The notes: generated from the sequence alone by a model not told the origin. A stretch of DNA of 63,665 nucleotides, filler included, from Rozella allomycis CSF55 (GCA_000442015.1; 4 parts of 4 records of this genome joined end to end with filler, not necessarily neighbours in it); one strand, 5' to 3'; shown: positions 17,657 through 46,150, numbered from the whole stretch's first letter. Made by a program: numbers and translations.

Positions 17657-20126
17657 ATGTCGCTACGAAGGAAACCAGTAGACTTTGATGCAGTTTGGGG
17701 TATTTTCGAAAAGAATATAACCAAGTTATTTGAATCCAGTGAAGAAGGAACAGTCCAGGCCATGGACCTTACACAGTATTTGAGTATAAGCACGTTAATA
17801 GAATGGTGTATGAAATGTGTAACGCATATCCAAACTCTTTTTTCTCAGAGTTGAAGAACAAGATTTCGAATTTTCTTTCAGCACAGGCTATCAAGCAAAG
17901 AAAAGTAATAATGATTGCAATACCTACAATGCAAGGCTATAATGAAAGATGTGGATATGATCAAAAAGTATTCAAACGAGTGGGATGTGTATTATAATGC
18001 ATTGTGTTTGTTAAATACTGTGTGTTCGTATTTGAACAGGTGCATTTTGATGAAAAAGGAATCAGATGGGGCAGGATCAAGTGGGCCAGATTTCTATACT
18101 ATAGATATTGTAAACCAATTATGTTCGTATTAGTAGATTGGAAAGAATATATGGAGGGAAAATGTCATTTTATGGATTAAAAGAAACTTTTCAAACAAGT
18201 TGGTGTCGCTTTTACTGTCGTACATTGAAGATGATCGAAGTTCTGGATTTAAAGATAGCAAGCATGCAAATTGTGCTATTAATTCATTTGGTAATCAGCG
18301 ATGAAGTTTTTAAAGTAGTTTTGAGTGATAATGATCCTTTGAACTCTATTAGATTTTACATTGATGAATTTGAGAATTTGATGCTTCAAGAAACTGAAAA
18401 GTATTATAAAAGCGAAGGTAAGACTAATATAACAAATATGAATATTGAATCATTTATGGATGTTGTAAATTGAATTTTTGTGATGGAATTAGGCTTTGAG
18501 AAGATTGGCAGAGGAAAAGGAACGAGCAAATCGATATTTTAAGTTTTCATTTGACAAAGTTGTAGAAGTTTATATTGATCAAGTTATTATTACGAATCAA
18601 AAGTTTATTCAAGAAGAATTTCAGAAATTTGTCGCTAATGATTCGTTTATAGAAATGGAAAAGGCTTATAATTTGTTAGTTCTTGTGAATGAAGGGATTA
18701 ATCCCTTGTTGATTAAATTAAAAGATCATATAGTTAAACTGGGAAGAGAAATCCTGGGAGGGCTTGGCGATGTGGTTATTAAAGATGCTAAACCATTTAT
18801 TACAGCAATGTTAAACTTGCATAATAAATATGATTATCTTGTTTCGCAACATTTTAATAAAGATACCAATTTTGAAACAATATTAGACAAGGTAAACTAC
18901 TTGACAATATTTAATAGGCATTCAGAGAAATAATTAATGACAGAAAAACTAACAAATTTATAAATGCGCCAGAGAATTTAGCTCGCTTTTGCGATACCAT
19001 TTTAAAGAGGAATTCTAAAGTTTCTCTGACAGAGGCGGAAATTGAAGAAAATTTGAGCAACGTGGTAAATTAAATCCTTCAGTATAATATTTGATTATAA
19101 TATTTAAATATGTGGATGACAAGGATGTATTTTCGCAATTTTATTCAAAATTTTTTGGAAAGAGACTAATTCAAAAGAGTTCTGTTTCAATGGAATGTGA
19201 AGTTGGCATGATAACAAAATTAAAAGTATTCAGATTACTAAATTTAGTAAAGGATGTTTGTGGATTCGAATATGTTTCCAAATTACAGAGAATGTATACA
19301 GATATAACAGTTAGTGAGACAATGCACGAAAAATTTCTTCAAAATTACAAATCCTCTCTTTCAAGTAATCTCAATTCTAATCTATTTTAGATGATTTTGA
19401 GTTTGCTATATTAACCGCAGGATCATGGCCAAGCGCATATCAAAACAATCAAGAGTTTATCCCTCCCTTTGAACTTGGCCAATGCATTAAACAATTCCAT
19501 GATTTCTATGAAAAAGAACACAGCGGTCGAAAGTTAACTTGGCTTTACAATCAATCTAGATGTGATTTAAAATTGACTGGGTTTGATAAACGCTACGAAC
19601 TACAAGTCTCAGTCTTTCAATCTTCAATATTACTAACACTAAACAAAGAAGGAAAGATACAATTACATCAAATAGCCGAAGAAACAAAACTCCCTATTCA
19701 CGAAATCAAAAGGAATATCAAACCTTTATTAGAATTAGGAATTATTCTAGAGAACGAAAATAATCAAGAAATTTCAATAAACGACAACTTTTCCCACAAA
19801 AGAGTAAAAATCAAGGTTCCTTCTATTGCCATCAATGAACCAAATGAAAAGGAAAGAGATTCGGTCAAAAAAGCTGTCGAAGATGACAGAAAAATGTACA
19901 TACAAGTAATAACTTATAACTGATAAAATAGGCTTCCATTGTTAGGATCGCTAAAGCAAAAAAGGAAATATCACACAATGACCTTGTTCAAGAAATTATA
20001 TCGCACGCAAAACCCCAGTTTTTACCCTCCATTGCGTTAATCAAATCTATGATTGAACATTTGATTGAAAAACAATTTCTTGAAAGGCATCCGTCAGAAA
20101 AAGGAAAATACATTTATGTCGCCTAA
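17657..20126 (+). CDS. CUL2: Cullin-2
   Basis: N-terminus MSLRRKPVDFDAVW and VYEMCNAYP resemble CUL2 (MSLKPRVVDFDETW, VYALCVAYP); FKYVDDKDVF, SGRKLTWL, IVRIAK neddylation site, ends YIYVA; 10 introns. Confidence 0.85.
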
Positions 20127-23034: not shown

Positions 23035-23134
23035 NNNNNNNNNNNNNNNNNNNNNNNNNNNNNNNNNNNNNNNNNNNNTTAATTAATTAANNNNNNNNNN
23101 NNNNNNNNNNNNNNNNNNNNNNNNNNNNNNNNNN
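23035..23134. other. Artificial scaffold linker
   Basis: N44-TTAATTAATTAA-N44 (stops in all six frames). Confidence 0.97.
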
Positions 23135-24001: not shown

Positions 24002-24295
24002 AATCACCGAAAATTTCCGAAAATTGAAAATCTCGGAAAAAGATTGGGCGACAATAAACTATCAGAAACCGACTTCAATAATAGATATTTTTTATTTAAC
24101 CCCTCAACCCTAACCCTTTACCCTAACGAACCCTAACACTACCAACCCTAATCCTCCCTAACAACCCTAAAAACTCCCTAGCAACCCTTACATTCCCCGA
24201 AAATAACACTTTCGATAAATTGTACTTTAAGAAACCACAGTCCACAGAGGAATATTTTTTTGGAGATTTTCGGTTTTCGGAAAATTTCGGTGATT
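24002..24295. repeat. ~39-bp inverted repeats enclosing a degenerate CCCTAA (telomere-like) array at ~24096-24190
   Basis: Left aatcaccgaaaatttccgaaaattgaaaatctcggaaaaa vs reverse complement of right aatcaccgaaattttccgaaaaccgaaaatctccaaaaa; inside caaccctaaccctttaccctaacgaaccctaacactaccaaccctaatcctccctaacaaccctaa. Confidence 0.85.
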
Positions 24296-27275: not shown

Positions 27276-30200
27276 CAGTAAGTTTGTGTGTATGGGTTTA
27301 GAGGCCAGTGTGAGTGTATACATGGTTGGAATGTTTTGAGTTCGCCGTTCGTGGAAGATGAATACATGTTTATTATGGAGCGGAGCTATATTTCTTTTAA
27401 TTTGGAGAATCGGCTTGGAACGAGGCCGTTTTTGGAGAAGATTGAAAAGAAATGGATTCTGTTTCAGTTATTGAAAGCTGTGTCTTCGCTGCACAATAAG
27501 AATGTAATTATTGCTTTTGTGTGATATTAGATTGTGCATGGAGATATCAAGAGTGAAAATGTATTGATTTCTACGGGCGGATGGGCGTACTTGTCTGATA
27601 TAGGAAACTACAAGCCTACATTTCTTCCTGAAGTATGACAGAAATCAATTAAATGAAATAGAATAATCCATCTGATTTTTATTTGTTTTTTGATGCTTCG
27701 GAGAAAAGGTCGTGTTGTATTGCCCCTGAAAGGTTTTTCAACCCATCTTCGCATAAGGAATCTGCGGCGTATGGATTTGATTTGAAAAAGGCGATGGATA
27801 TTTTCTCGTTGGGGTAATTTTATTGTTTAGGGTTAAATTGATGTGTAGCTGCGCATTTATTTTTGGAGGAGCCGTTGTTTACGCTGTCTAGTTTGTCAAA
27901 GTATTATTCTGGTGAGATTGATGTATCAGAGAGACTTAATAAAATAGAGGACGAGGGTGTTACAGTATGAGATTGAATATTCAAAGATAGAAAATGATTT
28001 TGAATATGATTGATCCATTTCCTGAAAACAGACTTTTGATTGATGAATATTTTGAGGTTTNTTTGGGGTAATTTTATTGTTTAGGGTTAAACTGATGTGT
28101 AGCTGCTCATTTATTTTTGGAGGAGCGGTTGTTTACGCTGTCTAGTTTGTCAAAGTATTATTCTGGTGAGATTGACATAACAGAGAGACTGAATAAAATA
28201 GAAGATGAGGATGTTACAGTATGAGATTGAATATTGAAAGATAGAAAATGATTTTGAATATGACTGATCCATTTCCTGAAAACAGACTTTTGATTGATGA
28301 ATATTTTGAGGTTTTTAATTCAATTTTTCCAGATTATTTTTATAATTTTTCTTTTGAGTACATTGGATCTTTAATTGCGTCGAAAACAGTAGAAACTTTG
28401 GATGAGAAAATTCACAAAATATTTAACGATTTTGATAAAATTTTATGCTCTTTAAATATTTCTATTGATGATGTTAAAGTTGAATGCTATGAAATTGAAA
28501 TTCCAAATGTTAAAATACCACGAAAACGTCAATTGAAGTCTGATGGAGTGTTAATCTTTTTGAATGTTATTTTTTCGTTTCTTCCATTGTTGAATAACTT
28601 GGATACAATTGAAAAAGCTGCTGAGATTATTTTTGTGCTTGGATTGTTAGCGAGGGATGAAATAATCCTTGAAAGAATCGTTCGTTATCTGGTTTTGATT
28701 TGTAACCACACGAATNTCAACGATTTTGATAAAATATTATGCTCTTTAAATATTTCTATAGATGATGTTCAAGTAGAATACTATGAAATTGAAATTCCAA
28801 ATGTTAAAATACCTCGAAAGCGTCAATTGAAGTCTGATGGAGTGTTAATCTTTTTGAATGTTATTTTTTCGTTTCTTCCATTGTTAAATAACTTGGATGC
28901 AATAGAAAAAGCTGCTGAGATTATTTTTGTGCTCGGATTGTTTGCGAGGGATGAAATAGTCCTTGAAAGAATCGTTCGTTATCTGGTTTTGATTTGTAAC
29001 CACACGAATGAATCTTATTTGATATCCAACTGTGTTTATTATATAACATGTTTAATGGAAAGTATTGAGAATGTTCCAAAGTTTGAAGTTGACTTATTTT
29101 TGGAATATTTGTTTCCCGCCCTTTCTCATCTAGTTTCCCATCCAGATCAATCAGTGAGATTCTGCATGGCCAAACATTTACCCTCTTTAATTAAAGTTGC
29201 AGAGAAATTTTTAAATATTAGTGATGAAATAAACAGTTCAGTTAGTAGCAACAGATTTTCTCAGTCAGATTTGTTTTCAGATGATTTTAGCATTAATCGC
29301 CCATTTGATTCTGGTGTTGGACATTTAAGACAGCAAGTTGAAGAGATGATTCAATTGCTTGTTGTTGACAATGATGTTAACGTTAAAATTAAAGTTGTTG
29401 AATCGCTTGGATTTTATTTCAACTTTTTCACGAATCAAAAGACTAGAGACACTATAATTTCACATGTTATAACGTTTTTAAATGAACGGAAATGGGAATT
29501 GAGAAGCGCTGTGATATTCTCATTGAAAGATGTTGCAAACTTTGTTGGTCAATCAACATTTGAACAAATATTTTTGCCTGTAATTCTACAAGGGTTATTG
29601 GGTAATAAGATTGAATGAAATGAATAGATGAGGAAGAGTGTGTGATAATAACAACAATTAAAACTTTGTCTCATCTTTCAACTAGTTTGAAACCTTTGGT
29701 GTTTAAGAAATTCATCAATAAAGTAACACCCTTGTTGGTTCATCCTGATTTTGAATTAAGAAATTGTAAAATTCAAATTTAAACATTAAAATTAGCTGCG
29801 ATTGAATTTATTTTAAATTTGTATGAAAATTGTGATTCAATATTCAAACTTTGCTTGGTTATTCCTTGTTTAGATTTATATTTATCAAAACCTTTAATCA
29901 AGATAAATTTTGAATTAATTCATGAATTTTTAATTCCACCAGTAGAAATTTAATTGATTTCATTCATTAAAGATTCCAACTGAACTTTACAATTATGCAG
30001 CTCAATGGTATTTGAAATCTAAAGATTTGTTCTTGATGGATGATGAATCAGAAGAATACAGGCGAATGATCACAATGGGAATGACGCCCCTGCAAGAGAA
30101 ATTTCTTCTCTTGTTGAAACCTTTTTATAGAAAGCCTTCATCACTAAGTTTAGAAACTGGATTTATTTCACTTGATCCTAAAGACATTAAATCGTTTGAC

Positions 30201-30328: not shown

Positions 30329-30428
30329 NNNNNNNNNNNNNNNNNNNNNNNNNNNNNNNNNNNNNNNNNNNNTTAATTAATTAANNNNNNNNNNNNNNNN
30401 NNNNNNNNNNNNNNNNNNNNNNNNNNNN
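30329..30428. other. Artificial scaffold linker
   Basis: N44-TTAATTAATTAA-N44. Confidence 0.97.
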
Positions 30429-30440: not shown

Positions 30441-30848
30441 ATGGCTGGAGGAAAAGGAGGAAAATCTGCATCTGCATCTCAAACAAAAGCAAAATCTCGT
30501 TCATCAAAGGCTGGTCTTCAATTTCCAGTTGGTCGTGTTCATCGTTTCTTGCGTAAAGGAAACTACGCTCAACGTGTTGGTGCTGGAGCTCCAGTATATC
30601 TTGCTGCTGTTCTTGAATATTTGACTGCTGAAATTCTTGAACTTGCTGGAAACGCTGCTCGTGATAACAAGAAATCCCGTATCGTTCCAAGACATCTTCA
30701 ACTCGCCATCAGAAACGATGAAGAATTGAACAAATTACTCGGAAACGTCACTATTGCTTCTGGTGGTGTTCTTCCAAACATCCACGAAGTTCTTGTTCCA
30801 AAGAAGAGCAAGTCTGACAATGCTGGATCTCAATCACAAGAATTATAA
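30441..30848 (+). CDS. H2A: Histone H2A with SQEL (H2A.X-type) tail
   Basis: [60 protein letters not shown]; intronless. Confidence 0.99.
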
Positions 30849-30870
30849 GTGATTTAATTTATCACAAACC

Positions 30871-30886
30871 GGTCTTCTTAAAGACC
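30871..30886 (+). promoter_or_regulatory. Histone 3'-UTR stem-loop (SLBP-type)
   Basis: GGTCTT-CTTA-AAGACC 6-bp stem, 4-nt loop, flanked by CAAACC and ATCA, 22 nt after the H2A stop. Confidence 0.8.
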
Positions 30887-30909
30887 ATCATTCTTAAAGA
30901 TGTTCAATT

Positions 30910-32020
30910 TTAACTTTTGTTTTTATTTAGTTTCGATTTCGCCATTTGATTTAAGTAAGATGAATATAAGCTATTTACAACAATCTGATCGAACTATGTT
31001 TATCCTTAGTTGTGTTATTACGTTTATTAAATCAATAATTCTTTTTTTAAACTCTTCTTTGGTCAATGTAGCGGAACTTTCAGAGTGCTTAATTAAGTGT
31101 TCCACCGGTAAACTTGTTGATTGAAGTAATTTCGCAATAGGTCTGTTTCCCTTTCTTCTAGTGATTCTACGTTTTGTCTGCGATACATCGGTTATAGAAT
31201 TGTCAGATACATCAGAATCCGTTTCACTTGATTCCAGTGCGGACGGCGGGTTTCTGGTTGCCGAAACAATACCTCGATTATTAAGTGGCAAGTCAGATAT
31301 AGGTTCGACTGTTTTCAGATCTCTTCCAGGAGTAATGACGGATCTCGCTTTTTCATTTCTCAAAGCCGCCCTTCGGAACAATTCTTCAAGATCATTCGAT
31401 GCACAATTAACGCCTTTAGGTGTCGTCATTACATTGCTATGATTCGCCCTGGCTAGTTGCGGGCTTTTCTGAGAAAAGATCGGTGGTCCCTTTGCAACAT
31501 CCCCAGAAAATATACTCTTAGTGGGTGTTTGTGGTTTAATTTCAGTAGCTAACATTGAGAACCTTATTTTACGAGAAGTTATAACGATACTTTTGAAACA
31601 AAGATGATATTTTTTCCCGTTCGTATTGATCAAAAAACCATATCCCATAAATATCTATCATTTAGATAATTCTCACATACCATTTTGGGAGCGAAATATT
31701 ATATAAGCATCAGTTAATTGAAGATCTATTTGTGACGAAAATGTTCCCTTGAAGTTTGTGATATTTAGTCTATTCATTATAAAAAATCCGTAGTAAGGAA
31801 AAGTCACTCGTCTATAAACAAATAAAGAGCCTTCAATATCTTTTTTATACTATTTCGTATACTTTTAGTGTTATACCCAAGTTGATGCATCTTCGTCAAA
31901 CTGGTACAAGACAACGTGTGAACTCATATCTATAATTTCTGCTGCTTCATCGTCATATCTTTTAAGAACTTTCATATTGATCTGTAAGGCCTTTTCTTTT
32001 ATCTCTTTTGTACTCTTCAT
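30910..32020 (-). CDS. DCP1: mRNA-decapping subunit Dcp1 (EVH1 plus C-terminal trimerisation helix)
   Basis: INMKVLKRYD..SSHVVLYQF..W-YKKDIEGSLFVYRR..YYGFFIMNRLN..DIYGIWF; C-terminal LTKEEFKKRIIDLIN..LYSSYL; 4 introns. Confidence 0.9.
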
Positions 32021-32160
32021 CACGGAAATTTCTGAGATTCTTTCCGGCGAAAGCAAAATCCCATTACGATAGGATTAAATAAGAGATTCATTAAATTAAT
32101 TGCATTTATCTTATAAACAAAATATATTCCTGAAAATTATAGAACATTTAAAAGTTATTA

Positions 32161-32966
32161 ATGCAATTAATAGACGACGAAAGTTTGCAGAGCGCTATTT
32201 CATTCCTTAATAATTGTAATGACGAGCTGGATTGGGGTGAAGATAGTGTTCCGTTGCTATTCTTGGGTAAGCTACTATATTTTGGCCATTGATAGACACT
32301 GTGAATAGGGAAGTTCTAGGCCAGTTTCCGCATGAAATGTTTACCAGCTGGGACATTATCATCGATTCTCCCAAACCACTTGAGACAATCAAACGTATAC
32401 TAAAAGAGGGTGCAAGTGGGGAGGAGGAAAAGGTAATAGAATATCATATGTACATATATGAATATCATCAAAGAAATTCAAACTTGGAAAAGCTTTCCTA
32501 AAACTGTTACAGCAGATATTGTTCGAAATGTTATTGATAAATACCCTAAAATCGCCGCGGAACTTATACTAAAAGCAGTACAATCGGAAAGGGCTCCTGA
32601 ATTTTACAATCTTTTGATAAATCTTGATATTAGTCTTCATTCCTTGGACATGATGAAGCAATTGCTATTCAAACGCAGTATATATGTCCCTATTGAAACT
32701 GCGTCGCTCTATTTAACCAATGGTATGGACTTCATAAGGTTAATAGCGGAAGAATCGAAACAGCACCGTTCTGTAAGATTGGTAATATTTATAATCTAAT
32801 TAATTTGATGATGTGCTTATTTCTTAAATCGGTTTTACCCGAATTCAATGAAATATTGCAGGACATATTTTTGGAATTGGAAACATTCGCTCTTGAATTC
32901 TCTAGAGTTAAAGAGGCGGCCGAAATATTTCAATATATAAGTTTGAAAAAGAACCAAATAAAATAG
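32161..32966 (+). CDS. CNOT11: CCR4-NOT subunit 11
   Basis: LINLDISLHSLDMM, LYLTN, QHRSVRL-MCLFLKS, ELETFALEFSRVKEAAEIF match the NOT11 C-terminal domain; 3 introns (two probable GT-TG). Confidence 0.85.
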
Positions 32967-33111
32967 TTTTCCCTTTATGGACTGAATTTATTATTGTGGC
33001 TTGTCGTGAGGCACGACACGATTACATAACCAAAATCAATAAAACCATCATTTGAGTACACGTGATTAAAGTATATTACATAACTTGACACCTAGTTATC
33101 GGTATCATTTA

Positions 33112-33753
33112 TTAATTATTGTTTTTTGATTTTAAATTGAGATATGCTTCAAGTGAATTATGAGAGTATAATGTCGAATCGTTCATTTTAGTTTCTTGGA
33201 AATTGTAAGGGAATATTTGGCCACTCCGGTATTCAGGACTTAATATCGAGTTGAGTTGCGGCAGCTGAACTTGAAAAGCTTGAGGTCTAATCTGCTGAAT
33301 CCAATCATTTTCATTGTGAAATTCCATATTGTGACTGTTGGCCGGTCTTGAAGATTGCTGAAGGGGTGATAGTTGAATGCCGTGAAGTTTCAATAAATGC
33401 GCTCTTAATGCAGTTCTGCGCGTAAAGCATTTTCTACAAATGTCGCAAGAAAAAGGCTTGTCACCTCTATGAACTTTTTTGTGTCTTGAAAGTGAACTAG
33501 AATCAGCAAAACCTTTTTGACACGTATCACATACGAATGGTCTTTCGTTGTTGTGTCTCCTAATATGGATCTTGAGACCTGGGCGTTGAGTGAAAGATTT
33601 TCCACACCCTTCAAATGGACACTTAAACGGAAATTCGTCTATCTTGGAGGTGCCTTCAGTGATGGGAGGTTCAGATTTAGCGCTGTTTATGTTCGTGGCT
33701 AATGTCGATGCGGAGTTTGAAGAGTCAGAATGTACAAGGTCTCGGATATCCAT
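33112..33753 (-). CDS. C2H2 zinc-finger transcription factor (3 fingers)
   Basis: CPFEGCGKSF..HIRRH-NNERPF-CDTC..HKKVH-RGDKPF-CDIC..HLLKLH. Confidence 0.93.
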   Translation of the reverse strand: MDIRDLVHSDSSNSASTLATNINSAKSEPPITEGTSKIDEFPFKCPFEGCGKSFTQRPGLKIHIRRHNNERPFVCDTCQKGFADSSSLSRHKKVHRGDKPFSCDICRKCFTRRTALRAHLLKLHGIQLSPLQQSSRPANSHNMEFHNENDWIQQIRPQAFQVQLPQLNSILSPEYRSGQIFPYNFQETKMNDSTLYSHNSLEAYLNLKSKNNN

Positions 33754-33985
33754 TTAACAAATCAAGAAAAGAAAAAAGGGTATCTAGAGAACACAAAAAT
33801 GAATTCTGAAATTTCAGACTATTATGATTTAAAGATAAAATCAACTTTCACGTGGCATGAAGTAATATATTTTAAGGCTTTATTTGAAAAGTTGAAAAAT
33901 TTTTAAAACAAAGAAAATGTTTTGGGTAATGGTAGCACGTGTTCGTGTTGAACTATAGAAATTTCGAAATTGTGAAGTGTGTATT

Positions 33986-35701
33986 TTATTTTTGCATTGT
34001 CATGATCATTTCTGACACAATGTCACGCTCTGTCATGGGGTCCTCAGATAAATCAAAGTCAGAGTCTTCCAAAATGCCTTCCTCGTCATTATTTTCAATA
34101 ACATCTTTCAATTCGTCTAAAATCTAAATAATGTTTAGTACACTGCCATATTACTCCTTCAAGCTGTTCCTTTAGAGTTTGATACTCATTCATATTTTCT
34201 TCTACGATACTCAGAAGTGTAAAATATCTTTCTAATTTATGGCCAGATATTTTTTCGAATGTCTTGAATAAATTGGGAATTAGAAAAAGATACTGGTACT
34301 TCAAACGGTATTTGCTCTTCATATATTTTCTGATTAACTTCAGACACATTCCTAGTCTCTTTGGCCACCTTTTTGGACACATTTTCGACTCTTGTTTTCA
34401 GTTTTCTTTTCTTTTGTAATTCTTGTTTCTTGAGGTATTTATATGCATTTTCCTTTACTTAATAACCTGACTATTTTACCATATTCGTTACAACAACCGC
34501 AACTACCAAGTTGGCAAAAATAAAGGCCCCAATAATGATGAATGAACAAAAATAGATAGCCGCTGCCGTAAATTGACCTTTGTCTTCCAATGCATTAAAA
34601 ATATTAATCCATCCATCTTGCGTGATACAAACAAATAAAGAATAGAATGCTCATATAGTATTTACTTATATATGTTACCAGTCCCCAAATCCTTAAAGTA
34701 ATAGGGTAAATCATCGCCGAAAAGAGTTACTCCAGTGACTGCATAAATAAACATGACAATTAGCAATAAAAAGACAATGTTTGCCATATCTTTAAAGAGT
34801 TTTTTAACATTTAATACCCGGAAGCGACTTAAATACAGTTGCCACAATTACTTGCATTCCCTTAAAAGCATCCATGCTTCTTAAAGCTCTGAATGCCCTA
34901 AAAACACGAAAAAGTCTTAGAATTCTTCCGCTGCTCAAAGCTTGAAAGGCTTTTACAATTTACAGAAAAAATCAATTACAGGGACCTAATAGTGTGATAA
35001 AAACTAAAGTGAAATCGAAAACATTCCATCCGCTTCTCCAGTAGTTAATAAAGCTATGATACCATTTGATTACGACTTCCATTATAAATATTCCCAGAAA
35101 AACATTCTCCAAGATTGGGATGACACTCTGATTGTTGGCTGACCACGTAGGGTCCACTTGGAGGGCCAGAAATACCGCATTCGCTGATATTACCGCCATC
35201 ATCACTGATCTGAAGTATTCTCCTTCTACCAATCTTCCTGCTAGATCTCTTGTTATTTGTGATTTAAACGTATTGTCGTCGATATCCACAATATTTAAAA
35301 AGTTCAAAAACTGACCTTCATTCTTAAGAAAGAGCTAACGTTTAAATACATGTAACATTTTACGATCTTCTGTGCTTGATTAAATATTTTTCCACGGATT
35401 TTTTCATAACCTTTAACGATCGACGATACATATGAGCCGGTAACGTTTCCGACTGGTTGTTCGTCAACTGGGAGAATTAAAGTTCTCCTAACAGCATTAT
35501 CGAAACCATTAATAATTGAATCGTAGGTTTCTTCTGACACATTAACTTTAGGCTATTGAAACAGCTGCCCTAAAACATTACTAGTTTGAATGCATGAGGT
35601 GCAACCTCTTCTTCTTCGGTTTCAAATTTCGAATTGGCTTTTAAAGGTATGTCCGACCCATTCGTTGTTGAAACTAATGATTGTTGACCGCTTAGAGGCA
35701 T
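33986..35701 (-). CDS. CatSper-type single-domain cation channel alpha subunit (CATSPER4-like)
   Basis: 6TM channel: WRSGWNVFDF, S4 RILRLFRVFRAFRALRS, pore FYSLFVCITQDGW, S6 FIIIGAFIFANLVVAVVVTNM; ~8 introns. Confidence 0.8.
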
Positions 35702-35752
35702 TGTAAATTAGTAATGGTGGCTGATAATAAGTTAACCAATTTTATTTATTAT

Positions 35753-36498
35753 TTATAAACTTTGCTTCATCCTGGTGGCGACATTTTTTAAGTTACCATA
35801 TACTTTGCCAGGAGGAGATCCCAAAATCAATGAAACTATGGCTCTTTTAGCAAGAATGGTGTTTTGGTAAGAGCCAAGAATATGAATTTTCGAGTCAGCT
35901 ACAACTATTCTTGTTCTCGTCGCATTTTCAATAGCAAACTTAGTTTTGCCGCTTTTTCCCGCCACTCTCCCAATAGCTCTTGACATGTGGTCTCCAGTGA
36001 GGGATTTTACTTAATTTTATCTTAAAACATAATATTACCGTCCCTGATCTCAAAAGAATCAATGTACAACTCATCTAAACGTAAAAGGGCGATTGCGTCA
36101 TCTACATCAAATCCTAGCGTAAAGGCTCGAACAAAATCCGCCCCCTTCTGTAATGATGAATTTTCAGTTGAATCTTCTGAAGTCTATTCTTAAATAGATT
36201 TGAACATTACGCGTAGCTCTACACATCTTCTTTTGACATTCATACGAACTTGTAATTTCATATAATCCACAAGAGGTTCATATATCTTTAGCCAATTTTG
36301 TCTTAAAGGTGTTATACGATTGTGAGGCACTGGAATTTTGCGATATTCGACATCTACAGCCTAACAAACTTTTACAAATAAGATTACTTGCATCTCCTTG
36401 GCAGACAATGCAGGAAACATAGGGCCATCTACTTGCATATCTGATATTTCTTTAATTTCTTTGTTTATATCCTCTGGAAGAATGACCAAGTCTGTCAT
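35753..36498 (-). CDS. PNO1: Pre-rRNA processing KH protein Pno1/Dim2
   Basis: [67 protein letters not shown]. Confidence 0.96.
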
Positions 36499-36652
36499 AC
36501 AGAAAACTAACTATGCCACTTTCTTTTTCAAAGATAAAAATATTCAAAGTACGATCTCGATTAGTATTATAACAGTATAAAAAGATATTATTTAAAATAA
36601 GGAAGCAGTTTCTAACAAATTCATATTAAAAGGTATTGCTTTGGAAAAAAAA

Positions 36653-36726
36653 TGTTCTGATCCAGGATCGAACTGGAGACCTTTCGCATGTAAAGCGAAC
36701 GTGATAACCAACTACACCATCAGAAC
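36653..36726 (-). tRNA. tRNA-Val(TAC)
   Basis: GTTCTGATGGTGTAGTTGGTTATCACGTTCGCTTTACATGCGAAAGGTCTCCAGTTCGATCCTGGATCAGAACA, poly-T after. Confidence 0.96.
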
Positions 36727-36920
36727 CGATGTTGTGGTTTTAAATCAATTACTTATTTAATGTACTTTGCAAATAGTGAGTTTCCAGAACATAGGTCAAT
36801 CTCCCTAGACCATACGGTGATTTATCATGCAATTCTCCTAACATTAAATAATGATTGTATTTACAATGGTGAAATAGTGTGTTATGACTTGCTATTTTGA
36901 GCTGACCCCCTTTGTTTCAC

Positions 36921-37526
36921 ATGTTGCTTCCTTTTCTACTCTTTATAAACGCCGTTATTGGATCCGGTATTGGTTCAAGCGTGTGTTCTGTAACTGAAAC
37001 TCAGATGAAGAAGGCATTTAATGCTGGGAGCACAAACTTGGGGTTCTCTTTGAAGTCGAGTTCAAAAAAGGTTTCAAGTGGACATAAAATCATTGTTAGT
37101 ATCGAAAACCGCAATAATTCAACGTCAATTTTCGACGAAATTCTGGTTTGGGTCAATCATGGAACTTTGTTGCTCCCAAACAAGACAAGATTTCAACGTC
37201 CATCTTGTGATGGTCGGAAAAATCATTCCTTCATTCAAAAGGCTAAACTTGATAAAGTTGGACTCAAGTCATTTAAGATTAAAGCACCCAAGAAGGCCGG
37301 GTTTATTACAGTCTCCGCGGCAATAGTCAAAAATGGCAAATGGCAAGTCCTGAAGCCCATAAAAATTACCGTGAAGAAATCAAAGATGAATAACAAGATA
37401 AAGTTGCACGCAAACAATACAGATTCAGGATCCGTTACTGCGCATCCTGTAAAAAGCAACAGCTCTAAAATTACACACTCTGTGTATTTTTGGATGGCAT
37501 CTATTTTCTTGTATTTTTTTCTATAA
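36921..37526 (+). CDS. Secreted/GPI-anchored Reeler-like domain protein (paralog 1)
   Basis: Signal peptide, C..TE..M, ILVW..GTL, KAPKKAGFITVSAAIVK..W, hydrophobic C-terminal tail. Confidence 0.65.
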   Translation: MLLPFLLFINAVIGSGIGSSVCSVTETQMKKAFNAGSTNLGFSLKSSSKKVSSGHKIIVSIENRNNSTSIFDEILVWVNHGTLLLPNKTRFQRPSCDGRKNHSFIQKAKLDKVGLKSFKIKAPKKAGFITVSAAIVKNGKWQVLKPIKITVKKSKMNNKIKLHANNTDSGSVTAHPVKSNSSKITHSVYFWMASIFLYFFL

Positions 37527-37579
37527 ATAAAACTGCATTTGTATTTTAGGAGTTCCCCCGATTGTTTCATATACAACGC

Positions 37580-38173
37580 ATGGAGATTTCATATTCAATT
37601 ATATTTCTATTGATCCATATGGTCTTTTCTTTTCCAAACGGATCTCCAGACTGCAAAGTAACAGAAAAGGGTATGCTTTCAGGAATGGGTGGATCCAACA
37701 TCCCAGGCCTTTACAAAGTAAAAGCGTCAAAAACAACAGTTTCTACAGGGGAAAAGATAAAAATCGAAATATCCGGAGAACAAATGAAGGGAGTTTTGGT
37801 ATGGTCCACGTCGGGGACTTTGGAAATCCCAAAAGGATTCAAAAAGCCTGCAAAATGCACTGCCAAAGAAGGCGAAGTCTCATCTTCATTTACACAAGCT
37901 AGCGGATTGTCAATTTCAGATCTATCCTTCAATTTCACGGCACCACAAAACGGAACAGCGAAAATTCATGCAGTAATTGTTAAAGACTTGAACTCTTGGG
38001 AAATAATAACTCCGATAAGTATTAAAATTGATTCTACGAAGAAATCCACAAACAGTACAGCTTCTGCATCAAAAGGAAAAGCAGTACCAAAAAGTCTCTC
38101 TTCGACAATGTCTATGGATTTATCCTTTTACTTTTTCATGGTTCTTTCTTTTATTGCAATCGTTAACATCTAA
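37580..38173 (+). CDS. Secreted/GPI-anchored Reeler-like domain protein (paralog 2)
   Basis: Signal peptide then FPNGSPDC, GEKIKIEISG..MKGVLV, FTAPQNGTAKIHAVIVK; S/T linker and hydrophobic tail. Confidence 0.7.
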   Translation: MEISYSIIFLLIHMVFSFPNGSPDCKVTEKGMLSGMGGSNIPGLYKVKASKTTVSTGEKIKIEISGEQMKGVLVWSTSGTLEIPKGFKKPAKCTAKEGEVSSSFTQASGLSISDLSFNFTAPQNGTAKIHAVIVKDLNSWEIITPISIKIDSTKKSTNSTASASKGKAVPKSLSSTMSMDLSFYFFMVLSFIAIVNI

Positions 38174-38242
38174 ATAAAGTTAAATTGTTTGACTACATTC
38201 GATTAATTTGATAGTATCCTGTTCAGCCACCCAGTAGTAGAG

Positions 38243-39556
38243 ATGAGCGACAAAGTTGTTGTTTGCGATAACGGAACAGGAGTAATTTTTGTAAGCAATG
38301 AATATAGTTTGTTAAATGTGGCTTCTCTGGTTCAAATTTTCCAGCCGCAATATTTCCTTCGGTTGTTGGTAGACCAATTTTGCGAGCTGAAGAGGCTATG
38401 CAAGAATTCAAAGATTTGAAAGATATAATTGTTGGAGAAGAAGCGTCTCAAAAGCGTTCGGCACTCCAGCTCTCATACCCCATGACAAATGGAATAGATC
38501 AGAATTGGGAAGACATGAAGCACGTTTGGAATCATACTTTTTACGATGTGCTAAAGATTGATCCTAAGGAATGTAAAATTTTGCTTACTGAACCACCCAT
38601 GAACCCTAAAAAGAATAGAGAAAAAATGATTGAAACGATGTTTGAGGAATATGGATTTAAGGGAGTCTATATTGCAATTCAAGCGGTATTAACACTTTAT
38701 GCCCAAGGTATTCTGCAAGTTAATTGATGATTAAGGTCTTTTAACTGGTGTTGTTGTAGATTCAGGTGATGGAGTAACTCACATTGTTCCTGTTTATGAT
38801 GGGTTTGCGTTACCTCATTTAACAAGGAGGCTGGATGTAGCGGGAAGAAATGTAACTGAATATTTGATAAAATTGTTATTACTGAGAGGATACGCTTTTA
38901 ACAGAACCGCAGACTTTGAAACAGTGCGACAAATTAAAGAAAAGCTGTGCTATGTAGCGTAAATGATAATTGTATTTTGATATAGATATGATTTGGAATT
39001 AGAGCAAAAATTGGCTCAAGAAACAACAGTGCTAGTGGAGAATTACACAGTAAGTTATTTATTGGGGTGATTACAGCTTCCTGATGGGCGGATTATTAAA
39101 GTAGGACAAGAAAGATTTGAAGCCTCTGAAGCTCTATTTCAACCTCATTTAGTGGATATTGAGTCTCCTGGTGTTGCTGAATTACTTTATAATACTATTC
39201 AATCAGCAGACATGGACATTAGATCAGAGCTATACAAGCACATCGTTCTTTCTGGGGGAAGCTCAATGTATCCTGGACTTCCATCAAGACTTGAGAAAGA
39301 AGTCAAACAACTTTATCTTTCAAGAACCCTCAAAGGAGACACCACTCGCCTATCAGTAAAATGAAACTTTCCTTTTAAAAAGAAATTTAAAATTAGAATT
39401 GAAGATCCTCCACGAAGAAAACACATGGTCTTTCTAGGTGGTGCCGTTCTAGCTGAAATCATGAAAGACAAGGAAAGTTTCTGGATTTCAAAGCAAGAGT
39501 ACGAAGAGCAAGGCCTGAGATGCTTAGAAAAGTTGGGTGTAGTTGGCAACGTCTAA
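38243..39556 (+). CDS. ARP2: Actin-related protein 2
   Basis: [86 protein letters not shown]; 5 introns. Confidence 0.98.
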
Positions 39557-39563
39557 ATAAACA

Positions 39564-40617
39564 TTAAAGATATTTTATTGGTAACCTTAAAGTCCCCAAA
39601 TCATCCCATTCATTGAAATATTGTTCAAATGAAAGAGTGCTAGCCCATTGGTGCAAATCTTCTTCAAAGAAATTTTCAGTAACCCCATCTGAATATGAAA
39701 TAGTCTCTGAATTAACATCAGCGTTTGATGAATCTCTCATTGGTAAACACGAAGCTTTAATCAATTTGTCAGTATCATCCTCAGTGCCTCCAAGTCCATA
39801 TATTTTCTTCATTTTCTCTATTCTTTTCCTTCTTTTATTTTTATTTGTTACAGCTCTGTAAATAATCATCTACCTTTATTACTTGTTAAATGTCATTGGG
39901 TATTCTACTCGATTCTGGTCATGCTTATTCGCTATTTGCATTATTTCTTCATCAATAAAAGATATAAGATTATTTCGCTTCACTTTTGTAGACCAATAAC
40001 TTGAATTCATCACTTTCTTAAGCATCAATCAATTTAATTACAGTCTAGATTTAACTCGCGCCAAGTATTGCCTCTTCCTCCAAGTTCTTGTGGTCTTTCA
40101 TCAAGGCTATTCAAGTATCGAATATATTCTTTAGCATTTGTAGCATCGTACAAGTCGTGGATTTCCGGATGCTTTTCATTAACAAACTTTTCAAATATAA
40201 TCTTTTCAAGATACTTCCTTGTTCCCATCTCGCGGAAAGATTGGAAATCTGCCTAATTTATTATAAATTGTTTCAATACCTTTGACCCAGTCAAGATTAT
40301 TTTATGACCACTGAAATATTGAACACTATTCGTCTGTGTAAAGATTTTAAATACAATAACAGGCGGAAACGAAATACCAGATAATCGAAATCGTATTCTG
40401 GCGTTACTTGTTGGGTCACTAATAATTTCCGCTTCCTGAGTGTTCAACCGCTTGATTAATGCTTTTGTAAGGAGGAATTCCTAAATTGATCATTGTATTC
40501 TATTACCGCTCGTCTTAAAGACTCTTTTATGGCGTAGAATATCCTTTTCTCTTTAAACGAGATCCAATTTCTCCAAATTAGTTTTGCAGATTCCTTTCTA
40601 ATCAAAAAGGTGTCCAT
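39564..40617 (-). CDS. CXorf58/C11orf65-like protein (ciliated-lineage family)
   Basis: RLNTQEAEIISDP..RIRFRLSGISFPPVIVFKIF, LMGTRKY, LDERPQELGGRGNTWREL, LHQWASTLSFEQY; 4 introns. Confidence 0.7.
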
Positions 40618-41105
40618 CGTTTCGTAAAGTTTGTCTAACCTACAAATATTTTGATTTCTTATTACATATTTTTAGGAATTTGGGAATCGTTGTGTGCATA
40701 TTCATTATTCTCAAATCCTAAGGCATTTAAATCGCTTTGCCCAAGCATCTCGGTCATTGATTAGTATCCAAGGAAACAACATGGAGTCAAAATTTGACTA
40801 ATCATCCTATAGCGTTTGTTAAATATATTGATGGTTTCACTGTAAGTCTGAAACAATTTAAGGTGGATTTGTTGCAGAGATGACAAAAAGTACTTAAATG
40901 ATGGTTCCCAAGTGTGTGTAATAAAGTTGCAATCCCTCAGAGTTTTGAAAATAGATGATAGATTCAGGATAAAAACATGATCAATTGCAAGGGTCAATAA
41001 TGCCACAAATTGCAAGGGTCAATTCCACTATGTCACGTCAGCCTCACCATTATACGCTATTGCTTTGATGGAAATAAAAGAAATTTTTAAATTAGCTTTA
41101 TATAT

Positions 41106-42244
41106 TTAGATCCAAATACATTTAACGTCGTTTTCATCCAAGCCTACATCAAGTCCTGCTTTTCGATTCCTGTCCAGTACTTTGACATCTTTACTTTTCA
41201 TTATTGGATAGTGAAACATGAATAAAATTGGTTCCAGCCATGAAAATATATATCTTTGGAAATAATAATGCTTCTTTTCGTAGCCAATCTAAAAGTATAC
41301 GAATTTCGTAAAACGTACTCTGATGCTCGGATTTATGAAAATGTCTTTTGCCCCAAGTTTGCGCAAATCAGAATGTATAATGCAACACTCGGTGGCGTCA
41401 AAAGTTATGTCATTAACCGTCCTCGTCGGAAAAAATCGAAAGCGTAATTCATGCGCGTAAAACCAATGTGCTTTGAAAACGACTGCCCCATTCCAACAAG
41501 CATAAACGGGAGCTGGATTGAATTGACGAAACTCCCTGACTGTGTCTGGTGAACTAAAGTATGGGAAGAATTCGGAAGATGCTGGATTCCCGTCACTATC
41601 CCTTGTAGCAAACTGATCGTAAAACGTCCAATAGTAATCCATTGGACAAACGGCATCGTAGTTACCATTTCTCGTCATAATTAGTTCTAATAGGTCATCT
41701 AGATTGAAATATACATCATTTAAAAAAATAATGAAATCATATTTGACGTTCAATTGATACAAAGAATCCAGAGCTTGATTTCTGACATCTGCCAGAAAAT
41801 CGATTCGATAGCGTCTTCCCCGCGTTGAACCGTTCAGTGTTATTGAGTTGGATATACTTCGTTCATTCAATTTACTTTTGAAATCTTCAAGAAGTTCGAC
41901 TGTTTTGTCATTGCTACACAACATGCCATAGTGTGTATTACCTGCCGCTTTCGTAAATTGAAACATGTACATTTTGATTTCCGACATAATTTGAAAACTT
42001 CAAAAGTGTGCTACACCATTTTGGCAAAACCTCTTGATTATTGTGTAGATTTGCGGCTATGAAATATTTCTTTGATTTTAAGTAATCAATATTCAATGAT
42101 ACGTTGCTAAATTCAGGTAGTATTTTTTAAACACCTTCTCTTGGAGTAAAGTTTATAGTTTGTTTGTAGCACAATTAAAACGAATACAATTGCCAGGCCA
42201 TTCAGTATTTTTTGAACCCACCTCCTCAAGTTGCGCTTTTTCAT
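41106..42244 (-). CDS. Alpha-1,3-mannosyltransferase, CAP59/CMT1 family (GT69)
   Basis: Type II TM anchor, IAANLHNN, VSIYESGSNDKT, LADVRNQAL, IIFLNDVYF, FYDQFATRD, PVYACWNG, ECCIIHSD. Confidence 0.92.
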
Positions 42245-42470
42245 GAAAATTTCCTTTTGAATCTCAATATGGTTAACATGAATTTTAATGCATTTTCGAA
42301 GATATAAAAATAGAAAAAAAGGATTAAGTTTATTCCGCATCTTTATTATTAACATTATCTAAAATTTGATGATTATGATCTGATTGAGAATCTTCATGTT
42401 CAACAAACTGCTTTGTTTTGGAATTGAAATGCTTTTTCATAAATTTTTGGATTTTGGTTGCCGCGGAATT

Positions 42471-43709
42471 CTATTTGAATTTTTGGCGCAAAGTTACTAC
42501 TGAATTCCTTCTTTTCCCTCTAGTATTTGTGTCAGAATCATCAATATGAGTCATTGGTATTTCTTCCTCTGTCAAGTCTTGTAAATTTTCGGTCTTTGAT
42601 GGAATTTCGTGAGCAGAAGAATCAGTCTGTATTTCTTTTACAAACTTTACATTTTCTTCCGCGATATTCATCAATTCTAACATCTTTATGTTAAAAGCAC
42701 CTAATTTTACCTCATTAATATCGCCGACATTTTCATAATTCAAATCGATTGAGGTTTCCAACAAACGTTCATTAAGAATGAAACTTCCTTCACGCGATGA
42801 GTGAACCTTTTGACATGCGATTAAAGCTCTTTTTAATCCTTCTATTTGTTTATTAATATCTTTCAAAAGTCCTTTCATCAATTTATTTTCNCATTCAAAT
42901 CGACTGAGGTTTCCAACACGCGTTCATTAAGAATGAAACTTCCTTCACGCGATGATTGAACTTTTTGACACGCGATTAAAGCTCTTTTTAGTCCATCTAT
43001 TTGTTTATTAATATCTTTCAAAAGTCCTTTCATCAATTTATTTTCCATTTCAAGTCGTCGAATTCGTATTTTATCACAATGGTTTAGAAGAAACCGCCTG
43101 CAATACGACTGTAATTGAACAGCGAATTTATGCCCCATATCGTATCTCTCTTTATAGTAAGATACTTCATCTTGCTTCCATTTATGTACTTCGTCATTCT
43201 TTGAGTCATTGGAGTAAGCATTTCGAATGATTACATCAACAACCTTTACCAGATCATTTTCTGAAATATACACGACTCTATTTAGTTTGCACACAAGAAG
43301 GTCGTCTGAATATTTCTTCCTAATCTATGCATTTTATTTTGAATTTCTTACCAAGTAACCTCGTATTAATTTTTGGATTTTAATGGCCTGCACTTTGCAA
43401 AAAATTAACTCCCGTTCTATTATTTTCTGAAACTCTGTTTTTAAAAAGTAGACTTCTTTTTCAATTCTAGAAAGATTGTGTGTAAAGTGAATAGAAGCTT
43501 TTGGCTCTATTTTTCACTAATATATTTCATACCATTTGAAATTCTTGTAAAATCACGACTGCTTTTGAGGGGAATCATTTTGGAAGATGAAGAAAGCCTT
43601 TCACTCGAAGGACTAGTCGACTATTTTATAAATAATTACGTCGAAGATCTAGAAGTATTGTTACTCTAAGATTAACTTAACATTCTCTATTTACATTAGA
43701 CCAGTCCAT
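42471..43709 (-). CDS. IQ-motif coiled-coil protein (internal duplication at N 42891)
   Basis: AIKIQKLIRGYL-IRKKY and AVQLQSYCRRFL IQ-like motifs; small GT-AG introns. Confidence 0.6.
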
Positions 43710-43785
43710 TACGAAATTTCATAATCCAGGCAGTAAATCCATCTGATTCCAAGACCCTGGTTTAATTTAGGTGTCTCGACTATAA

Positions 43786-44412
43786 ATGGTTGTGCCAAAG
43801 AACATCAAGCTTACATACTTTGCTGGTAAGGGGAGGGCAGAACCAACTAGGCTTGCCTTTCACATTGGTGGTGTTGCTTTTCAAGACGAAAGAGTGAAGG
43901 GAGAAGAATTTGCCAAAATTAAACCTACTCTTCCATTAGGACAACTTCCAATAATAACAATTGACGGCACTGTCATCGCACAATCTCTTGGAATTCTTCG
44001 TTACGCAGGTACATTGACAGGCCTTTATCCAAACAATGATCCATTGAAAGCTCTTCTAGTCGACCAAATTGTATTTAGTCTTGGAGATGTCACTGATATG
44101 CTCGTTCCAACTTTCGGAATCCAAGATTTAGATCAAAGAATCAAAGCTCGCAAGGAAATCGTTGAGAACAGGTGGCCAGCACTATTTAAAGGAATTGAAG
44201 AAGCGTTAAAGAAACATGGAGGCAAATATTGCGTAGGCGATAATTTGACTGTAGCAGACCTTTCATTATACACTCTTGTTGAAGGGCTAAAGTCTGGAAT
44301 TTTGGATGGAGTCCCAAAGAATGTTGTGGAACCTTATCCATTAATGACTAAGTTTAGTAATCAAGTAGCAAATCACCCAAAAGTTGTTGAGTGGGAAAAG
44401 GCTCATCAATAA
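43786..44412 (+). CDS. Glutathione S-transferase (sigma-like)
   Basis: KLTYFAGKGRAEPTRL, PLGQLP, QSLGILRY, VGDNLTVADL. Confidence 0.95.
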   Translation: MVVPKNIKLTYFAGKGRAEPTRLAFHIGGVAFQDERVKGEEFAKIKPTLPLGQLPIITIDGTVIAQSLGILRYAGTLTGLYPNNDPLKALLVDQIVFSLGDVTDMLVPTFGIQDLDQRIKARKEIVENRWPALFKGIEEALKKHGGKYCVGDNLTVADLSLYTLVEGLKSGILDGVPKNVVEPYPLMTKFSNQVANHPKVVEWEKAHQ

Positions 44413-44435
44413 ATTTTTTAGTTTTTAACTTTTTA

Positions 44436-45975
44436 TTAAACATTTCGTTCTGCGTTTAAATCATTTGAAGAGTCTCGAAATTCTTGGGCTATTTGTTCAG
44501 CAATGACTTTTGAAGAAGATACGCATTCTCTTAAGGACACTCCGCCTTTCCAGCACCCAGTAGCCAGCAAATTACCATCATATTCATCATTTAACATGTT
44601 TACAATATCTTTTATCCTTTGTTCATGACCTAAATAATATTGTGGTATACATTTTCTTTGTATATTCAAAGATGCAGAGATTGGTTTGACATTTGAAGGG
44701 ATATTTAGATATTTTGAAATTTCTTGAATTGCCGTTCCAAAAATAACTTTTTCTAATTCCTCCCCTTTGAAACGACCAAAATATTTTTCAAATAGAAACC
44801 CTCCTAACAAGACGCAAAAGTTTGTTGCGGACGAATCCCAACCAAAGATATGTGAATTATTTATGCATCCAAGAACTGGAGTGTCTTCAGTTGATGAACA
44901 CTAGACAAAAATTAAATGAAATTCATTACGAGAAATCCAAAATGAGGTAACGACTGCTTTACGTTAGAATCGTTGTAAATCAAATTGACAATTCCTACAT
45001 CAACATACTCAATAGAGTTTAATGCGTTTTGCAAAGGTTCGTCTTGTAACATTCGACTCAAGCTGAACGATGGTACAGATGAAATAACTTTATCATAACA
45101 TTGTACTCTGTGAGCCGAAGGTGAAGAAACCTATCCATCTATTGTTATTAAGTGAATTACCTTGACTTGCCCTTGTGAATATCTTAGCTGTTCAACTTTA
45201 GCATCTTTAAATATTCGCACATTCTTTCTTAAAAGATAACTCTCAAGTCCTTGACATAAGGATTCCATGCCATTTTTCATTCCAAAGATCACTTCGTTTT
45301 TTAGTATTTCATTCATATATTCATCATTGGTTTCTTGCTGATTCGGATTAATTTTTTTCTTTATATATCTTATCAGTGATCCTCTAGATATCGACCCATA
45401 CGCTTGATCAAGTTCAAAGAGTTTTGGCTGGACGCACTTAACACTTATTCGGCGAGAATCCCCAGCAACAATACCTTTAGTTAATGCCGAGAACATAATT
45501 TCTGCTGGCCACACACCCGCTTTTCTGGTAATGAAGTCATGGGTTGTTTCGTCCTCTAATACCCCTCTTGTTGAAAAGAAATCTTTCGCCAGCCCTTTCA
45601 ACATTGGAAAGAAAAACTTTTTTCCCAATATGTTAAATGGATAAACTTGTCCATCTATGACCATGGCTGTGGAGCGTCTGTCTATGGAAATGAACTTTAG
45701 ACTGTTGGACATTCCAATATCTCGTATCTCTTAATATTTATATAATCAATTACCATATCTAGTATGTCAATAGACCCTTTGTTGATATGCACTGTCCTTG
45801 GCCCATTTTCAATGAACATGTTTGATTTGTGCAATTTCGACTGGATCCAACCACCCGTTCTATTTGAAGCTTCGTATACATCAATAGCAGCGTTAGGAAT
45901 ATATCGCTTAATAAAAAATGCACTTGAAAGTCCTGATATACCCCCTCCAATTACAGCAATTGATGGCGCTGACAT
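44436..45975 (-). CDS. HEM14: Protoporphyrinogen oxidase
   Basis: IAVIGGGISGLS FAD motif, EASNRTGGWIQS, ENGPRT, CIPQYYLGH, GVSLRECV; 3 introns. Confidence 0.9.
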
Positions 45976-46150
45976 TGCAAATCGTAAATATCTAAAATCT
46001 AGATCAAATGGAAACTTAAGAAACTGTATAAATATGTCAAGTAACCAAAAATATATAGAATTAAGAAATTGTAATTAAAATGTAAAAGCATATAATGTCA
46101 AAATGGTGTAGAATTTATTTNAAGCATATTATGTCAAAATGGTGTAGAAT

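Follow-up and report, generated by a model that had tools for sequence, protein, structure and literature searches.

The CNOT11 gene of Rozella allomycis CSF55, at positions 32161-32966 on the plus strand of the stretch of DNA analysed here (the window; 63,665 nucleotides, filler included, made up of four parts of four records joined end to end), is predicted to contain three mini-introns, the first ending in AG, the second, candidate intron A, probably ending in TG, and the third, candidate intron B, almost certainly ending in TG. We consider this explanation, as a whole, likely. It draws on the reading frames of the locus, on the continuity of the CNOT11 domain across B, and on two further predicted GT...TG introns, in a VPS15/PIK3R4-like kinase gene and in a cullin gene, which by homology lend independent support to the use of TG acceptors. 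About four GT...TG introns beside 53 canonical ones in 64 kilobases (kb) would be unusual.

The CNOT11 gene and its two inserts

A preliminary description of this DNA, made from the sequence alone, had placed two candidate TG-acceptor introns in the gene, and both stretches were found letter for letter where it had put them. The first, GTAATAGAATATCATATGTACATATATG, occupies 32433-32460 (28 nucleotides, nt), between GAA AAG, which ends at 32432, and AAT ATC ATC AAA GAA. The second, GTAATATTTATAATCTAATTAATTTG, occupies 32782-32807 (26 nt), after AGA TTG, which ends at 32781, and is followed by ATG ATG TGC TTA TTT CTT; if the next ATG is counted in, this insert measures 29 nt and ends at 32810. 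The frame changes that had been claimed at both inserts are borne out by the stop-to-stop open reading frames (ORFs), namely, 32271-32501 in frame 0, 32440-32799 in frame 1 and 32697-32966 in frame 0.

The same DNA is present in contigs of three sequencing runs from three studies, one of which may be the source of the assembly, that were compared with positions 30500-50499 of the window. First, record 1 of run X1, covering 31187-33053, differs by 11 letters and one gap, all of them outside 32161-32966. Second, record 25 of run X6, covering 30500-33059, differs by 15 letters, again all outside the gene. Third, record 18 of run X5, covering 32249-32852, shows 0 differences. Since the contigs from the three runs agree across the CNOT11 gene, the frame breaks belong to the DNA itself and are neither assembly nor sequencing errors. 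As a separate observation, all three runs depart from the window at six shared sites (32064, 32067, 32068, 32070, 32092 and 32107), which sit just upstream of the CNOT11 start; between 32064 and 32107 the window represents another allele or strain, or local errors. The resulting gene model is as follows.

32161-32966, plus strand: CNOT11 gene model in four exons, with start ATG at 32161 and stop TAG at 32964-32966 (from ORFs, Pfam and human structures)
32161-32266, plus strand: exon 1, predicted, start codon included, from open frame and codon usage only
32267-32295, plus strand: intron 1, 29 nt, GTAAGC...GATAG, GT-AG, the only short GT-AG choice that keeps the frame open, placed without homology support
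32296-32432, plus strand: exon 2, predicted from open frame and codon usage only
32433-32460, plus strand: candidate intron A, 28 nt, GTAATA...TATATG, GT...TG, phase 0, 79% A+T (from frame, donor and length)
32461-32781, plus strand: exon 3, main part of the CNOT11 domain (Pfam PF10155; residues 50-133 of human 8bfh_A)
32782-32807 or 32782-32810, plus strand: candidate intron B, 26 or 29 nt, GTAATA...TTTG(ATG), GT...TG both ways, with CTAAT at 32796-32800
32811-32966 (from 32808 if B is 26 nt), plus strand: exon 4, C-terminal part of the CNOT11 domain and stop codon

The gene had been named CNOT11 in the preliminary description, and matches to both the Pfam family and human CNOT11 structures agree with this. 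Exon 3 matches PF10155 with 46.7 bits (expectation value, E, of 4.4e-12) over profile positions 2-81 of 125, and the piece from 32808 matches it with 28.1 bits (E 2.5e-06) over positions 81-124 of 125, both above the curated cut-off of the family (25.9 bits). Among human CNOT11 chains, exon 3 aligns with residues 50-133 of 8bfh_A (E 2.6e-10) and exon 4 with residues 134-176 (E 3.1e-07). The locus is the CNOT11 gene of Rozella allomycis or of a very close strain, the organism being identified from the dynein and cullin matches described below. The Rozella copy covers the C-terminal domain of CNOT11 (C2orf29), namely, profile positions 2-124 of 125 and 8bfh_A residues 50-176, but its predicted protein has about 239 residues, whereas the homologues found mostly have 350-500; it is no more than 27-35% identical to them, and its N-terminal part cannot be recognised by comparison. 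Among 1.84 billion cluster representatives there was no predicted protein that exceeded 35% identity to exon 3, and a word-indexed protein search with the same exon returned no match; the gene seems to be absent from public protein sets, and to be unannotated.

Of the two inserts, B has the clearer evidence for a TG end. There is no AG anywhere between 32778 and 32860, so any GT-AG version of this intron must end at 32861, and thus measure 80 nt when counted from 32782, or 89 nt when counted from the GTAAGA at 32773. On both sides of the insert PF10155 is continuous, with positions 2-81 before it and 81-124 after it. In the alignment with human CNOT11 (8bfh_A), L133 is the end of exon 3, V134 is the ATG at 32811 and C135 the TGC that follows, without gaps once 29 nt are removed. 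We also scored the spliced variants against a CNOT11 profile built from 68 of 70 homologues, two of at least 700 residues being excluded, with the following results.

B as 29 nt, GT...TG: 106.1 bits
B as 26 nt, GT...TG: 99.2 bits
B as 80 nt, GT-AG, 32782-32861: 73.8 bits
B as 89 nt, GT-AG, 32773-32861: 66.1 bits

The 80-nt GT-AG form therefore scores 32 bits below the 29-nt form and 25 bits below the 26-nt form. Comparing the two protein versions with CNOT11 homologues had been suggested as a check of the original claim, and it prefers the AG-less intron. The branch-like CTAAT noted at the outset lies at 32796-32800, 8 or 11 nt from the end of B; such motifs are infrequent even in the canonical introns described below. 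At the protein level B is strongly supported, and its TG end, as read from these alignments, is almost certain.

The case of A is different, in that its neighbourhood carries no significant similarity to CNOT11 homologues. It would start with GTAAT exactly at the frame break and have the modal length of the window's introns, as B does, and this joint fit of the two inserts to frame break, donor and length exceeds chance. Codon usage, expressed as log-odds per codon, is 0.23 for exon 1 and 0.22 for exon 2, compared with a mean of 0.21 for coding sequence and of -0.01 for non-coding open frames. Altogether 28 in-frame, stop-free combinations of GT or GC with AG were listed for A, and one of them is 32 nt or shorter. 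The shortest AG options are a 28-nt GC-AG intron (32412-32439) and a 43-nt GT-AG intron (32450-32492, donor GTACAT), followed by options of 58, 64 and 79 nt. The preliminary description, which gave canonical alternatives of 43-80 nt, was therefore correct for GT-AG introns and had overlooked the 28-nt GC-AG option. Its statement that canonical versions delete residues aligned with CNOT11 stands for B, where about 18 domain positions are lost. By frame, donor, length, composition and analogy, A can be read as a GT...TG intron with reasonable, if somewhat lesser, confidence. Thus, of the two TG-acceptor introns originally put forward, B is upheld by the continuity of the profile, and A is plausible only, homology giving no confirmation of it.

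Mini-introns of the window and further GT...TG candidates

An ab initio scan of the window, in which GT...AG segments had to link two open frames of coding-like character, revealed a sharply defined class of mini-introns, with AG ends enriched at 24-32 nt: with GTAA donors it gave 56 AG-ending solutions at 24-32 nt versus 53 at 33-60 nt, and, for non-AG dinucleotide ends, 5-26 solutions each at 24-32 nt versus 25-126 at 33-60 nt. The strict, non-overlapping set comprises 53 GT-AG introns of 25-31 nt, with GTA(A/T) donors, 62-89% A+T and 2-8 G, and with TAG at the 3' end of 33 introns, AAG of 11, CAG of five and GAG of four. GTAAT is the commonest donor 5-mer (17 of the 53). An unused internal AG is present in 26 of the 53 introns, and a YTRAY motif in only 18; no 5-mer stands out as a branch motif, and TTGAT, which had looked attractive as such, was not borne out in this set. 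Longer introns are rare: in our reading, those of 35 and 41 nt are the clearest true exceptions, and the longer GTAA...AG rows are mostly extended versions of short introns. The annotated Rozella dynein protein omits three such in-frame introns, of 27, 27 and 30 nt; further dynein junctions, at 57383-57355, a pair around 53500, 61471-61444, 60860-60832, 59145-59117 and 57995-57968, are GT-AG as well. Rozella has been described as rich in introns, at 2.5 for each kb of coding sequence (PMC8476143).

A stringent scan for AG-less introns, restricted to GTAA donors where a change of frame is required and AG offers no solution within 40 nt, yielded 30 rows, of which, in our judgement, exactly three are credible, at 27814, 19065 and 32782, the last being B. 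The further introns are listed here.

27814-27840, plus strand: GT...TG intron of the VPS15/PIK3R4-like kinase gene, 27 nt, GTAATTTTATTGTTTAGGGTTAAATTG, phase 2 (from alignment with yeast Vps15)
28068-28094, plus strand: second copy of the VPS15 intron, about 95% identical, ending in ACTG, in a duplicated overlap at an assembly join, with N at 28061
19065-19093, plus strand: GT...TG intron of the cullin gene, 29 nt, GTAAATTAAATCCTTCAGTATAATATTTG, phase 0 (from alignment with human CUL1)

In the kinase gene, alignment with yeast Vps15 (5kc2_B) ends the upstream piece at L226 and starts the downstream piece at C228, with G227 as the split codon, and this junction requires that exactly 27 nt be removed. 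The protein would be identical to that from GT...TG if the cut were shifted by one base in either direction (GG...TT or TA...GA); the next AG, at 35 nt, leads to a frame that stops after 13 codons. The second copy of this intron retains the TG despite a T versus C difference at position -3.

In the cullin gene, alignment with human CUL1 (1u6g_A) ends the upstream exon at residue 449, and the residue encoded from 19094 corresponds to residue 450, without a gap. Plain read-through is impossible, since the insert contains an in-frame stop two codons in (GTA AAT TAA). The sole in-frame AG lies at 59 nt, and choosing it would remove a further 30 nt that encode IIIFKYVDDK, opposite MVVFKYIEDK of CUL1. 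The cullin piece of the window is 100% identical to the CSF55 cullin. In the same gene, a 27-nt GT-AG intron, GTATTCAGATTACTAAATTTAGTAAAG, lies in frame and stop-free at 19226-19252 on the plus strand; the public cullin model retains it as coding VFRLLNLVK, where human CUL1 has a 9-residue gap.

These two introns have a TG end that homology fixes independently of any splice motif, as has B, at 26 or 29 nt. TG makes up 6.5% of the dinucleotides of the window, all homology-fixed ends (VPS15, cullin and B) are TG, and the chance of TG at both of the exact ends, those of VPS15 and cullin, is alone about 0.004; it is unlikely, as judged from the window's composition, that three homology-fixed ends would all be TG by chance. 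The four candidates also resemble the canonical set. Their donors, namely, GTAATA for A and B, GTAATT for VPS15 and GTAAAT for cullin, all fit the window consensus GTA(A/T), and all four measure 26-29 nt with 78-88% A+T. Within 24-32 nt of their donors, none has an in-frame AG. U12-type introns are recognised by the 5' consensus (A/G)TATCCTT together with the branch motif TCCTTAAC; none of the four introns contains TCCTT, and their starts do not match.

The other rows of the scan that we considered were set aside as follows: 28702 is an artefact of the N at 28716 within a continuous ORF; 8660 belongs to the beginning of the next gene; 36375 and 20928 lie within or beside canonical introns; 37714, 35867 and 30738 are antisense to opposite-strand genes; 47072 lies within an exon that, by its motif, we take to be cyclophilin-like; 37511 falls between two tandem genes; and 10483 has a 41-nt GT-AG solution. 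A looser AG-less scan, in which 92 of 288 rows were AG-less, was too noisy for counting.

The window has several other features. Single Ns at 28061, 53468 and 61816 mark joins of overlapping, unmerged ends (27780-28330, 53360-53540 and 61780-61900), so that short stretches of the VPS15-like and dynein genes, exons and introns alike, occur twice in tandem. The ends at 27.8 and 28.07 kb are about 95% identical and probably allelic, and at 53.4-53.5 kb two copies of one intron diverge far more than the flanking exon. Three pairs of blocks of 44 Ns, with 12 bases between partners, make the sequence unreadable at 23035-23134, 30329-30428 and 62412-62511. A degenerate interstitial array of TTAGGG-like units occupies 24100-24190 on the minus strand; TTAGGGTT occurs eight times in the window versus 1.9 expected, four of the eight within this array. 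Finally, a large axonemal dynein heavy chain gene, DNAH1-like, extends over 49485-63663 on the minus strand and runs past the end of the window. It is 61-70% identical to chytrid and animal orthologues, its ORF matches a Rozella allomycis CSF55 protein at 99% identity, and it shows a strong negative GC skew on the plus strand.

Alternative readings of A and B

Several points weigh against the reading of A and B as GT...TG introns. The exact end of B is split, in that the profile favours 29 nt and the context of TTG followed by AT, as in VPS15 and cullin, favours 26 nt; both ends might be in use. For A, the CNOT11 profile fails to separate the readings, which spread over 3.5 bits at most (106.1 for A of 28 nt, 105.3 for 25 nt, 104.9 for the 43-nt GT-AG version, 104.0 for a start at the ATG at 32458 and 103.5 for the GC-AG version), and frame alone would allow ends at 25 nt (AT), 28 nt (TG) and 31 nt (AT). 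Exons 1 and 2 match no Pfam family, and when the N-terminal 100 residues were compared with the pre-domain region of the homologues, 308 of 1000 shuffles scored as high or higher. The exon 2 codon score of 0.22 lies at the 95th percentile of non-coding open frames, and each of the two exons is borderline when taken alone. The intron census is ab initio, comes from 64 kb only and has thresholds of our own choosing. Among the runs listed as containing this stretch none is recorded as RNA, and the DNA runs X6, X1 and X5 and the RNA run X13, compared with positions 30500-50499, gave no splice joint, results without bearing on expression. Two scans of metagenomes, one with exon 3 of CNOT11 and one with the HEAT region of VPS15, brought up no rozellid relatives. 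Lastly, the public annotation takes the GT-AG solution in the cullin gene: in the Rozella allomycis CSF55 model (P0191), residue 415 corresponds to 19064 and residue 416 to 19124, so that 59 nt are spliced out and IIIFKYVDDK is lost.

Further related results can be added. The RNA metatranscriptome X13 gave 10 short pieces with 90-95% likeness to this part of the window, none of them in the CNOT11 gene, which likewise has no bearing on expression. A PDB search returned chance-level matches only for exon 1 and none for exon 2. A resemblance of exons 1 and 2 to a DEL-W motif was dropped, the pre-domain sub-profile being not significant.

The best placed of the alternatives, unlikely as we judge it, accepts B as a GT...TG intron and denies that A is an intron at all. 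Translation would start at the ATG at 32458-32460, the product would be little more than the C-terminal domain, and 32161-32432 would belong to a 5' leader containing an upstream ORF or else to a small gene of its own. An in-frame ATG does lie exactly at the end of candidate A, the protein that begins there scores 104.0 bits against 106.1 for the full model, and exons 1 and 2 are without detectable homology. On the other hand, these two exons have coding-like usage, and the 29-nt GT-AG intron between them is typical and keeps them in frame; the unspliced upstream frame stops at 32499-32501, and would share 44 nt with the CNOT11 frame on one strand, an unusual arrangement for a eukaryotic nuclear gene; and a GTAATA at the exact point of the frame switch, 28 nt before the in-frame continuation, would have to be a coincidence.

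Canonical sites only, with B as an 80- or 89-nt GT-AG intron, A as a 28-nt GC-AG or 43-nt GT-AG intron, and a Rozella protein that simply does without the residues concerned, make up a reading that we find improbable. All of these versions are in frame and stop-free, the public annotation picked an analogous 59-nt GT-AG intron in the cullin gene, GCAAGT is the usual GC-donor consensus, and the canonical versions of A come within 2.6 bits of the TG model on the CNOT11 profile. However, the 80- and 89-nt versions of B lose 32 and 40 bits, respectively, together with an unbroken run of about 18 domain positions whose codons are in frame, and lengths of 43-89 nt are outliers with respect to the strict set of 25-31 nt. 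GC donors are at background in the window, where GCA(A/T) gives seven rows, the controls GAA(A/T) and GGA(A/T) nine and two, and GTA(A/T) 46. The GC-AG candidate itself (32412-32439), with 50% A+T and, by our count, 13 G, falls outside all 53 canonical introns, and would drop codons scoring +4.3 while gaining codons scoring -0.6. The same logic fails in VPS15, where the next AG breaks the frame.

A pseudogene, sequence errors, or inserts passed over in translation by frameshifting or bypassing, for which the apparent lack of annotation of the gene (no match above 35% to exon 3 among the 1.84 billion representatives) could speak, are very improbable, given that three runs from three studies match the window across the gene, that all four exons are open with coding-like codon usage, that the domain reaches 106 bits after removal of the inserts, that these carry the donor and length of Rozella introns, and that the cullin insert stops in frame after two codons, which bars plain read-through there.

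A possible relaxation of the AG rule in Rozella

If A, B and their VPS15 and cullin counterparts are GT...TG introns, the four inserts would be spliced by the major spliceosome, with the 3' cut placed mainly by its distance from the 5' splice site or the branch point. The latter is suggested by the 7-nt length window of the introns, by their weak branch motifs and by the AGs that are often skipped. In catalytic spliceosome structures the terminal G of the intron pairs with its first G, and the residue at -2 contacts the branch adenosine; in the Rozella candidates the terminal G would be kept, and a U in place of A at -2 would be tolerated. A broader proposal, which we make tentatively and at a little less than even confidence, is that the AG rule is relaxed in Rozella, with a ruler-set cut in introns of 25-31 nt that need the terminal G only. 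A few percent of introns, or hundreds genome-wide if the window is typical, would then be constitutive GT...TG introns in core genes, missed or mis-spliced in current models.

Rare GT-TG introns are already known from mammals, in which these sites lie in long introns; what our analysis suggests as new is that GT...TG mini-introns are constitutive and comparatively common in a parasite from an early-diverging fungal lineage. Among the mammalian cases, as given in the excerpts consulted, are the GT-TG sites of GNAS, described as functional, and of TSPYL2, described as tissue-specific (PMC4176328), and an ARS2 intron that is conserved between human and mouse and belongs to 99 introns with non-canonical 3' ends in five species (PMC1557818). 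Like the Rozella candidates, mammalian U2-type GT-TG introns have a normal U2-like 5' site and a TG 3' end, and are presumably processed by the major spliceosome. They are, however, very rare and often alternative beside an AG, whereas in Rozella about four occur beside 53 canonical introns in 64 kb; the Rozella candidates, predicted from DNA, measure 26-29 nt and are apparently the sole productive option in conserved core genes.

Microsporidia such as Encephalitozoon cuniculi, the sister lineage of Rozella, are likewise parasites whose reduced genomes contain spliceosomal introns of extremely small size. These miniature introns are described as GT-AG, and they are few and concentrated in certain genes, in contrast with the intron-rich Rozella. 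In the excerpt of a study of E. cuniculi, one intron of 76 nt is about three times longer than the miniature ones, and the short introns are spliced at less than 20% on average (PMC6349667). A lineage-wide departure in terminal dinucleotides, tied to altered U2AF and small nuclear RNA function, is described in the consulted part of a report on the tunicates Fritillaria and Oikopleura (PMC13326754), and an excess of GA-AG in Oikopleura in that of another (PMC7072748), the main text of which has no occurrence of 'GT-TG' or 'Rozella'. According to the first of these reports most introns are affected there (95%), chiefly at the 5' end or at both ends; the Rozella introns keep strictly to GTA(A/T) at the 5' end, and deviation at the 3' end, always to TG, is confined to a minority. 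The consulted parts of the intron literature on Rozella and Cryptomycota, the Rozella genome paper and its supplements aside, mention neither TG acceptors nor a class of 25-31-nt introns in Rozella.

Gene finders restricted to GT-AG damage conserved genes, as in the cullin model, which loses a core motif and retains a 27-nt intron as coding, and as in CNOT11, for whose exon 3 the protein libraries gave no match; this may bear on claims of lost genes, in Rozella and its relatives, that were drawn from annotations of this kind. A relaxed AG rule would further imply that, on the branch towards microsporidia, the factors of the 3' splice site and of the second step have been altered. If RNA data bear the introns out, TG acceptors would be in routine use by the major spliceosome in the ultra-short introns of Rozella, a natural system that would permit direct tests of how a 3' splice site is chosen without AG, for instance by distance or by the terminal G alone, and that would also show which changes the splicing machinery underwent on that branch.

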